A DNA stretch of 9,574 nucleotides, taken from UHGV virus genome UHGV-1960391; one strand, given 5' to 3'. Shown here piece by piece: positions 7,549 through 9,252 of this stretch. How positions within the stretch are numbered: the stretch's first letter is position 1; each line of letters starts with the position of its first letter. A program made the position numbers and the translations under genes. The notes below the pieces were generated by a model. That model ran no database searches, was not told the DNA's origin, and was given only the letters and a program-made list of their open reading frames with translations. This DNA comes from a virus.

Positions 7549-9252
7549 TCAGGAACGAAGAACAATAAAGAATGAAAGCATGGAGCCAATCAGCGTCATA
7601 ATCACCCTGAAAGTGGCCCTGACTTCATCGGTATCAAGCAGCACACAAAAAGTATCCAGTTGATAATCTTTATTCCAGATATTGAATGTAAAAACAGGAC
7701 ACTGACCCCGTGGAATTGTCAGTGAAAAATCACGCGCAGAAGGCCACATATCCCACAACGGAGAGATAAATGATGATGGCTCAGGTGATGAAATATCTGG
7801 CGTGGATACATCCGGTGCAGTACCAAAATCATTTGTCACGGTCACATTAACATTTACCGTGGCATCACCTGTTACCGTGGTACTGGCAGACCCTGTTCCG
7901 ACGCCGGTTATCGTTCCGCTACCTGTTCCGGTACCTGTTCCGGTACCTGTTCCGCTACCTGTTCCGGTACCTGTTCCGGTGCCTGTTCCGGTGCCTGTTC
8001 CAGTGCCTGTTCCAGTGCCTGTTCCGGTACCTGTTCCGGTACCTGTTCCGGTACCTGTTCCGGTGCCTGTGCCGCTACCTGTTCCGGTGCCTGTTCCGGT
8101 GCCTGTTCCGGTACCTGTTCCGGTGCCTGTGCCGCTACCTGTTCCGGTGCCTGTTCCGGTGCCTGACCCCGTTCCGCCACTGGAGCCAGAACTGCCATTA
8201 CCAGAAACTGGGGTAAAATCCGGATCAACAACCGGAGGCGTATATTTACCGCCAGATGATTCCGTGTCACCTTCCGGCGTAGGCGGTATGGCTATTTCTC
8301 CTGTTCCGGTGAAACCACCGGAATCACCACCGGACATATCTACAGTCGAGCGATAATTATCAACATCAGAAGCAGTAAAATACAATGAAGACGATGAAAC
8401 CCCGTCATAAGATGAAAGGCCATCTAACTGCTTTGTCAGTCCATTAAGGATATCGGCGATATCCTGCGAAGCAAGATTATTACCTGAAATAACTGGTGTG
8501 GAATAATCAGATGAAAACGGATTCTCAGTAACCGCTGCAATACAGGATGAGCTACCCCCTGAAGGTGTAAAAAGCACCTGTCCCTGGTCACAATAAGTAT
8601 CAGAATCAGAACCTAATACTGAAGAATACACATATAAAGAACTTTCAGACCATCGACCATTATACTTAGAAATATAGTAAAAAGTATAACCTTCAAGAGA
8701 ACCAATGCTCTTTTTAGGGGTGTAATAAGAACGAGTCAGAGACGGAGACGAATCTGCCGGAAGACAATTTAAAAGCTGCGAAGCCGTTGAAAAAGGCGAT
8801 GTACTGGTAGCAACGCCACAGGAAGACAATCCCCCAATCCAGACTTTCGACCCACTGGACATGGCAGGTGTCGAGAAAAAGGCATTATACCCGTTTTTCT
8901 CAAGAGCCAGCTTTGCAATTTCTTCCGCAAAAGGTTTACCAACAGCATAAATACCAATACTGACAGTCGTTACACCCAGCCCATAAGCAAGCGTACTCCA
9001 GGTCATTGCCGAAGATGATATTCCAATTGAAGCCGCATAATTTGACGCAAAAGAAGCTGCCGCACGCGAATAACCGGAAAGCGTTGCAGATATTGCGGCT
9101 GCATCAGCACCAAGAGAAATCAGTTTACGGTTAATCACACCTGATAACTCAGATGTAAAAGTATTTGTTGCCAGTGAAGCATCAGCACGGACATTACAGG
9201 AGAAAGACAGAGAAAATAATAAAAACGCTGTCATTGTTTTATTTAATTTCAC
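7549..9252 (-). CDS. Minor coat/adsorption protein g3p (pIII)-like with long (Gly-Thr)n linker
   Basis: Track ORF extends to 9345 (TTG); I favour the GTG at 9252 preceded by GGGGGTGG, giving signal peptide [25 protein letters not shown]. An about 85-residue GT/GS repeat separates the N-terminal domains from a C-terminus [11 protein letters not shown]...FCVLL...[17 protein letters not shown] resembling the Ff g3p C-terminal anchor domain (CRPFVFGAG...IDCDKINLF...membrane anchor, recalled). Start position uncertain. Confidence 0.75.
7915..8165. repeat. About 20 tandem copies of a 12-bp unit (CCTGTTCCGGTR) encoding the Gly-Thr linker of g3p
   Basis: Directly visible near-perfect tandem repeat; produces spurious PVPV (plus) and APEQ (minus) shadow ORFs in other frames. 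Confidence 0.9.

Follow-up and report, generated by a model that had tools for sequence, protein, structure and literature searches.

The stretch of DNA analyzed here, 9,574 nucleotides from the virus genome UHGV-1960391 (referred to below as the window), carries towards its right end an open reading frame (ORF) of 567 residues that very probably encodes the g3p-type tip protein of an integrated filamentous phage (Inoviridae) of E. coli. This assignment is based on position, size and architecture. Read along the minus strand, the stop of the major coat gene g8p is followed by a 63-residue ORF, the 567-residue ORF, a DUF2523 protein, Zot and a secretin, and all of the window's genes in this order lie on that strand (Table 1). 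The Ff phages (M13/f1/fd) have their g3p in the same slot, between the major coat gene and gVI-gI-gIV. In contig L015, the sequence at the right edge of the window is the last codons of g8p, and a gV-like gene and a Rep gene of the G2P_X_C type lie further upstream. The loci of the related prophage clusters P0004 and P0048 are built alike, with Rep (G2P_X_C), gV (Phage_DNA_bind in contig L014), three small ORFs, the g3p-type gene, DUF2523, Zot and secretin, the small ORFs being of coat-protein size. The minus-strand frame is open across 7549..9345. The GTG at 9252, taken here as the start codon, is preceded by a G-rich, Shine-Dalgarno-like run and lines up with the annotated starts of the homologues. 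The product has both features looked for in a tip-protein candidate, a signal peptide and a single C-terminal transmembrane (TM) anchor with a short basic tail. Cleavage after the signal peptide is a prediction, and in the alignment all homologues have a matching basic and hydrophobic N-terminus with an A-x-A-like end. The six cysteines of the mature protein fall into three local pairs (145/163, 221/237 and 518/536). As in Ff g3p, the signal peptide is followed by an N-terminal adsorption region, a low-complexity linker containing glycine and a C-terminal domain, a layout that would be in line with a location in the virion.

Table 1. Features of the g3p-type gene and of its neighborhood in the window
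Feature	Position	Strand	Basis
Putative g3p-type minor coat / adsorption protein, coding sequence with GTG start, 567 residues plus stop	7549..9252	-	ORF list, translation, g3p slot, synteny of relatives
Signal peptide, residues 1-23, predicted cleavage before DA	9184..9252	-	Read from sequence; cleavage site predicted
Conserved Ala/Ser-rich helical module with weakly hydrophobic Gly-rich segment, residues 25-130	8863..9180	-	Alignment, AlphaFold2 (AF2), Kyte-Doolittle
Variable central beta-rich domain, residues 131-245, Cys145/Cys163 and Cys221/Cys237; candidate receptor-binding part	8518..8862	-	
Helical and unstructured connector, residues 246-352; conserved LNGL, DVDxYRS and DSxxFT motifs	8197..8517	-	Alignments, AF2 secondary structure
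Linker of G, S and T only, residues 353-447	7912..8196	-	Tandem Repeats Finder, codon listing, tract counts, autocorrelation
C-terminal domain, residues 448-567: conserved ITPLWDMWP motif, Cys518-Cys536 hairpin motif (7645-7701), TM anchor, tail RS	7552..7911	-	
g6p-like minor coat protein (DUF2523)	7245..7532	-	PF10734 7.6e-10; phrog_974 7e-20; weak phrog_306 (Ace-like)
g1p / Zot assembly ATPase	6175..7233	-	PF05707 1.3e-23
g4p secretin	4919..6178	-	PF00263 1.8e-25, with Secretin_N
63-residue ORF directly upstream of the g3p-type gene	9239..9430	-	ORF list
Terminator-like perfect 16-nt palindrome GGGCGGATATCCGCCC (9535-9550), then T6 on the coding strand	9529..9550	-	Read from sequence

A first, sequence-only reading of this DNA had described the N-terminal 330 or so residues as unlike the N1 and N2 domains of Ff g3p, and our searches bear this out. 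No Pfam family matches the region even at an E value of 10 or below, PDB sequence searches returned low-complexity noise alone, and tblastn of the full g3p against 50,697 GenBank phage records found nothing. The AF2 model of the region matched no known fold, and the N-terminal fold is an orphan. A profile hidden Markov model run against 1.84 billion cluster representatives recovered ten proteins; nine belong to the family itself, as members or fragments, and the remaining one is a weak, repetitive match. Neither Pfam nor tblastn detects an N1 domain (PF05357, Phage_Coat_A), and the fold of the pilus-binding N2 domain was not found, which sets the protein apart from Ff g3p. The window itself provides a control for these searches. 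A second, different g3p starts at about 783 on the minus strand and runs off the left edge, with its N-terminal part only. This fragment (783..1) matches PF05357 (9.7e-8), phrog_8482 ('attachment protein') and, by tblastn, gene III of IKe, I2-2 and f1. Thus, the methods can detect N1 where it is present. Since N1 was not found in the 567-residue protein, binding to TolA cannot be assumed. It is reasonable to suppose, as the first reading did, that the protein may use a different primary or secondary receptor.

Conservation is uneven along the protein. The best conserved N-terminal part comprises residues 25-130, with 80, 48 and 40% identity to the sister allele (L001), P0004 and P0048, respectively, while the central beta domain (131-245) reaches 51, 29 and 23% and the C-terminus 93, 58 and 36%. 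At the DNA level the N-terminal part is 52-80% identical to the sister allele, and identity climbs to 98-99% over the last 170 nt. A divergent center next to a near-identical C-terminus is what one would expect if the receptor-binding end is exchanged or diversifies, and the regional pattern fits a fast-evolving or exchanged receptor-binding center that may be flanked by modules with conserved functions. Residues 25-130 contain the invariant motifs SELSG, AYGLG, NGY and TPAM and a Kyte-Doolittle peak of 1.35 at residues 86-105, and AF2 places helices here with low confidence.

The linker between the two halves is encoded by a tandem array. Tandem Repeats Finder reports it at 7913-8165 with a period of 12, 21.1 copies, 90% matches and a score of 380. 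In translation this gives an unbroken run of 44 G[T/S] dipeptides (39 GT and 5 GS; residues 360-447, window 7912-8175) within a stretch of 95 residues that are G, S or T alone (353-447). The earlier description of a linker of about 85 residues from about 20 units of 12 bp at 7915-8165 was therefore accurate, the measured run being 88 residues long. The unit is GGAACA-GG(C/T)ACC, or in another form GGAACAGG(C/T)ACC with about 21 copies, and the autocorrelation of the array is 0.89 at 12 bp versus 0.64 at 6 bp, with GS units interrupting it irregularly. Slippage might be favored by quasi-palindromes within the array, GGTACC and CCGG among them. A defined structure of the array as single-stranded viral DNA was considered and set aside, since its folding is only modestly more stable than that of shuffled sequences (z = -2.84) and yields no stable centroid structure. 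Two listed ORFs that overlap the array, 7802-8356 on the plus strand and 7908-8270 on the minus strand, encode (PV)n and (APEQ)n and are other-frame or opposite-strand readings of the repeat, not genes.

In comparison to the g3p proteins measured on fetched sequences the linker is long. M13 has two (E/G)GGS linkers of 20 and 40 residues, whereas the window protein has one of 95. IKe and I2-2 (Lineavirus) resemble it in that one long Gly-rich linker precedes the C domain, and that of IKe also contains Thr (GGDTGGGSTGG...), but it is irregular and 51 residues long. The glycine-rich linker that in Ff-type g3p connects the adsorption domains to the C domain is thus present here as a variant, and it is presumably flexible. 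For f1, the 39-residue L2 linker was estimated to span up to 14.8 nm (PMC10175506). By arithmetic from this estimate (PMC10175506), at 0.38 nm per residue, a fully extended linker of 95 residues could reach up to about 36 nm.

The unit length of the array is a multiple of 3 bp and therefore copy-number changes are expected to alter the tether in frame, as had been predicted from the sequence together with the proposal to compare copy number across related strains. Both points have now been addressed with the sister allele, which occurs in 27 of 5,426 complete E. coli genomes. Compared with the window, it has about 66% identity in DNA and 63% in protein over the N-terminal region, and a nearly identical C-terminus. 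Tracts were counted in 11 of the 27 genomes and contain 29, 35, 35, 35, 38, 38, 40 (with one GD interruption), 41, 44, 47 and 50 dipeptides. The proteins have 525-567 residues, are all in frame and differ by multiples of 6 residues, with near-identical flanks. Copy number that differs while the frame is kept, as in a variable number tandem repeat within a coding region, is therefore a property of the sister alleles. A known case of this kind is the Thr-Gly tract of Drosophila PERIOD, which is encoded by a degenerate hexanucleotide array and shows natural in-frame length polymorphism. The comparison is an analogy only, as protein, organism and function are unrelated, and no homology is implied.

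The arrays of the sister alleles have a period of 18 bp (autocorrelation 0.91-0.96), with units such as GGTACA-GGCACT-GGAACG and GGTACG-GGTACA-GGCAGC that use other codons for the same dipeptide pattern. Thus, the 12-bp array of the window and the 18-bp arrays of the sister alleles were rebuilt independently in DNA while the Gly-Thr/Ser peptide was kept. We take this as evidence that the peptide pattern is under selection, and against a mere accident of recent slippage. The distant relatives P0004 and P0048 have an imperfect G-T/S/A/E/D linker at the same place. One may ask whether the length itself is under selection. The length polymorphism might be adaptive, with tether length tuning the reach of the N-terminal region (for example through the outer membrane and periplasm to an inner-membrane co-receptor) or the host range, in the manner of a contingency locus. 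The wide range of 29-50 dipeptides in 11 genomes, the independent expansion of 12-bp and 18-bp arrays and the tracts of 52 and 128 residues in two related prophages of a single isolate genome (L034 and L087, see below) would speak for such a role. However, the lengths seem to vary continuously, as they would under neutral slippage within tolerated limits, and we consider an adaptive role rather unlikely.

The window allele differs from other family members in its 12-bp unit and in its own N-terminal variant, which was not found in the 5,426 complete E. coli genomes; a second complete copy of the exact allele was found neither there nor by exact protein look-up with three alternative starts. 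The other copies of the 12-bp allele that were found all end at the repeat in draft assemblies. Three draft-assembly clusters consist mostly of members annotated as partial (among those listed), and the near-full-length ones stop no more than a few residues from where the tract begins; contig L015, which is 99.8% identical, stops inside it. Since the array breaks short-read assemblies, hundreds of drafts wrongly list the gene as partial. Such failures, and the missing second copy, would speak for the possibility that the array length in the window, or even its intact frame, is itself an artefact, generated by collapse or expansion of a 264-bp low-complexity repeat. Against this, the ORF stays in frame through the array, its 44 dipeptides lie within the 29-50 range of the complete-genome assemblies, and the GS interruptions are irregular, as in real arrays. 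The chance of an artefact, which we have judged for the copy number only, appears slim.

The long linker is not a peculiarity of this phage. We have scanned IMG/VR for (GGNACN)x10, which gave at least 120 contigs, and examined the first 120 matches. In all of these, some frame has 8 or more consecutive G[T/S] dipeptides, mostly in large ORFs of other viruses, and with an iterated Zot/pI profile at least eight inovirus contigs were identified among the matches listed. In the eight listed contigs the ORF with the GT tract is located 260-340 nt upstream of Zot and shares its strand; a (GT)n tract of 22-128 residues ends 107-175 residues before the C-terminal hydrophobic anchor. One of the contigs (L019) is a member of the family described here, L127 is a distant relative, and L131 belongs to a phage with an M13 pI-like protein and carries (GT)40; the others are L030, L116 and L136 as well as L034 and L087. 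The latter two (2327-3955 and 2034-3770, respectively) are the related prophages of one isolate genome mentioned above. Their g3p-position proteins have near-identical C-termini and long mixed G/S/T/A/N low-complexity regions before the tracts, and the 128-residue tract of L087 is the most extreme linker among the matches listed. Apart from L019, the N-domains of these proteins are unrelated to the window protein and mostly Cys-rich, and no N-domain of the GT-linker inoviruses among the matches listed has a Pfam match. The C-domains are mostly unrelated as well, with weak similarity in L127 (2e-5). L127 also carries an SELSG-like motif and has the Gly-rich hydrophobic segment in a clearer, TM-like form, GWIGMVVGAVIGAVANYAIGLGL. 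Gly-Thr tethers are a recurrent solution in inovirus g3p, and the linker of the window is neither unique nor the longest. The view that it is unusually long thus holds relative to Ff and IKe, and needs qualifying among the inoviruses with (GT)n tracts.

The strict keeping of G-T/S across independent DNA arrays and unrelated g3p families suggests more than a constraint for any flexible residue, and it might mean that the tract is structured or modified, either as a series of beta-turns or as a target of O-glycosylation, instead of acting as a random-coil tether. Beta-turns have been proposed for the Thr-Gly repeats of Drosophila PER. Nevertheless, the distant relatives accept A, E and D at the second position, and a general pathway for O-glycosylation is not known from E. 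coli. We rate a structured or modified tract as improbable.

The C-terminal domain was earlier thought to end in an Ff-like anchor, and this view stands for the architecture and the motif. The TM helix covers about residues 544-565 (7558-7623), with a Kyte-Doolittle peak of 1.98 at 546-565. As at the end of the Ff g3p C-domain, a Cys, about 17 residues and a second Cys are followed by the TM helix and a short basic tail (PMC10175506). In the structure of the f1 tip, Cys354-Cys371 close a beta-hairpin just before the TM helix (PMC10175506). The only segment aligned by hhalign between family C-termini and the C domains of M13, IKe and I2-2 pairs the Cys-hairpin of the family with CRPFVFSAGKPYEFSIDC (CRPFVF..KPYEFSIDC), the M13 segment that holds this very disulfide. 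The alignment does not lend the view significant homology, its E value being 0.26 and its probability 0.2%. Among PHROG profiles the C-terminus matches phrog_3942 (1.1e-14), phrog_7187 (3.2e-10) and phrog_815 (2e-5), all families of unknown function, and its last 60-120 residues align with the C-terminal ends of g3p-sized profiles. The N1-bearing second g3p of the window also matches phrog_815, in the N-terminal part of that profile, which gives an indirect link to the Ff-type proteins.

Besides this lack of significance in the hhalign comparison, several points weigh against our interpretation of the gene. The AF2 model is unreliable over the first 125 residues and a cryptic N1-like element may be hidden there. 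The copy number in the window rests on a single assembly, and the prophage may be defective. It is conceivable, too, that the protein has no role in the virion at all, being a secreted or membrane protein that serves the host (adhesin-like, or an exclusion factor) or the relic gene of a defective prophage, as its PHROG matches are all to families of unknown function, its N-terminal fold is an orphan and the window holds a partial copy of its phage adjoining a different prophage; yet a g3p has exactly this slot, this size, a signal peptide and such a C-terminal anchor, related complete prophages have no other g3p candidate between g8p and g6p, and the frame is kept in all alleles despite the instability of the repeat, which makes such a role very improbable.

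Full-length homologues of the g3p-type protein are found in the E. coli/Shigella prophage clusters P0001-P0004 and P0048, and RefSeq lists them as 'hypothetical protein' (for example WP_446851058.1); they correspond to PHROG 7187 and 3942. Identity of the N-terminal region to the window falls through the clusters from 99 and 63 to 37-40 and about 30%, while architecture, G-T-rich linker and synteny are common to all. The named members come from E. coli and Shigella, and the host strains include human diarrheal isolates. Megablast of the whole window against GenBank phages gave no match, and a search for related loci in species-representative genomes returned nothing. Searches of open-access texts turned up neither this E. 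coli phage family nor any mention of Gly-Thr linkers in a g3p. By position and architecture the family appears to be of the g3p class, and it would stand outside the Ff/IKe g3p family because neither N1 nor N2 was found. IKe has the same gene order, but its g3p carries an N1-type domain of the sort matched by the second g3p of the window and not by the 567-residue protein. A further difference is that Ff phages are episomal, whereas the gene described here is from an integrated prophage.

Taken together, these data suggest a working model for a g3p-type tip protein. The signal peptide would export the protein and the C-terminal helix would hold it in the inner membrane, where, by analogy to Ff, the C-terminal domain and g6p would join the virion tip at the end of assembly. 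The N-terminal 330 residues would form an adsorption module distinct from Ff N1/N2, in which a helical part with a Gly-rich hydrophobic segment is followed by a fast-evolving, disulfide-bonded beta domain. This variable central domain would be the likeliest binder of a primary receptor. A Gly-Thr/Ser tether of about 95 residues, presumably flexible, would join the two halves and stand in for the glycine-rich linkers of Ff. The tether length would shift in frame when 12-bp or 18-bp units are gained or lost through replication slippage or unequal recombination, and selection would keep the Gly-Thr pattern while the copy number drifts within a tolerated range. One could go further and propose that the conserved helical part with its Gly-rich hydrophobic segment is a device absent from Ff g3p, membrane-active or binding a co-receptor, which together with the exceptionally long tether allows entry into E. 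coli independently of TolA and N1, possibly without a retractile pilus, tether length then being an evolvable determinant of reach. We regard this extension as quite unlikely.

Some features of the surroundings deserve mention. The 63-residue ORF upstream of the g3p-type gene has no TM segment and no Pfam or PHROG match, and its sequence is reminiscent of a ribbon-helix-helix protein. Its stop overlaps the GTG start of the g3p-type gene by 14 nt, which suggests that the two may be translationally coupled. A small ORF occupies this position in the related prophages, whereas Ff has none there. The palindrome GGGCGGATATCCGCCC comes directly after the g8p stop, at the position of the VIII-III terminator in Ff and IKe (annotated as a stem-loop terminator between the two genes in IKe), but a scan for consensus terminators did not return this site.

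The window as a whole joins pieces of two inovirus prophages, 1-4464 and 4919-9574, and the phage of the g3p-type gene is present only in part. The part at 10-4464 shares 99.6% identity with a tandem prophage of E. coli 377323_2f (L002) and carries a GPA-type Rep, g5, small ORFs and a g8p at 1088..846, while 8167-9574 are 99.8% identical to contig L015, from a phage with a G2P_X_C Rep. Other genomes pair the same g3-g6-g1-g4 block with GPA-type or 'replication initiation factor' Rep genes, and these combinations indicate modular shuffling. The second g3p has a Cys-rich N-domain and then a (GGSTSGGSS)n linker, encoded by a 27-bp repeat at 10-160 (5.6 copies, 95% match); its counterpart in L002 has a longer array and is annotated as broken fragments. 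A 60-residue plus-strand ORF (3984-4166), divergent from the GPA-type Rep gene, matches phrog_2503 (5.6e-27, function unassigned) and is probably a phage regulator.

At the junction of the prophage pieces lies a 96-bp element (4369-4464) that has matches in many E. coli chromosomes as well as in plasmids of several genera and that forms the first 80 nt of the draft contig L015. For the whole window there are up to 27 matching places in some genomes. The segment 4704-4921 matches many plasmids at about 85%, and the translations of the ORFs at 4371-4550 and 4556-4864 resemble a diverged direct repeat. The junction element could be a host repeat, or else an element for attachment or of intergenic nature. 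That the window is a complete circular genome was considered in view of replicons of about 9.5 kb. This is unsupported, as the window has no such plasmid match and, by blastn, its ends come from two prophage types. Integration of the window at dif was likewise set aside, because no dif site was found in it within 3 mismatches. The prophage with the P0004 relative ends beside a dif site (1 mismatch; L013 13336-13363), consistent with XerCD-type integration. The H1 prophage, in contrast, sits away from dif, and its neighbors are an IS110-family transposase and a phospholipase D family gene (L001 11755-12720 and 2995-3693).

The protein is a variant of the known g3p design and not a new kind of system. 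To our knowledge, nearly all that is understood of how filamentous phages enter cells comes from Ff, IKe and CTXphi, and these phages all use an N1-type TolA-binding domain. A family without N1 that is narrowly distributed in E. coli and Shigella prophages therefore has receptors worth testing. The Gly-Thr array offers a ready-made length marker for typing of strains and prophages, and it can be seen as a natural experiment on the tether lengths allowed in g3p, which is relevant for the design of linkers in phage display. Finally, unrelated g3p proteins of inoviruses share a (GT)n tract at an equivalent place, which suggests that their design follows a general rule beyond that of the textbook GGGS linkers.

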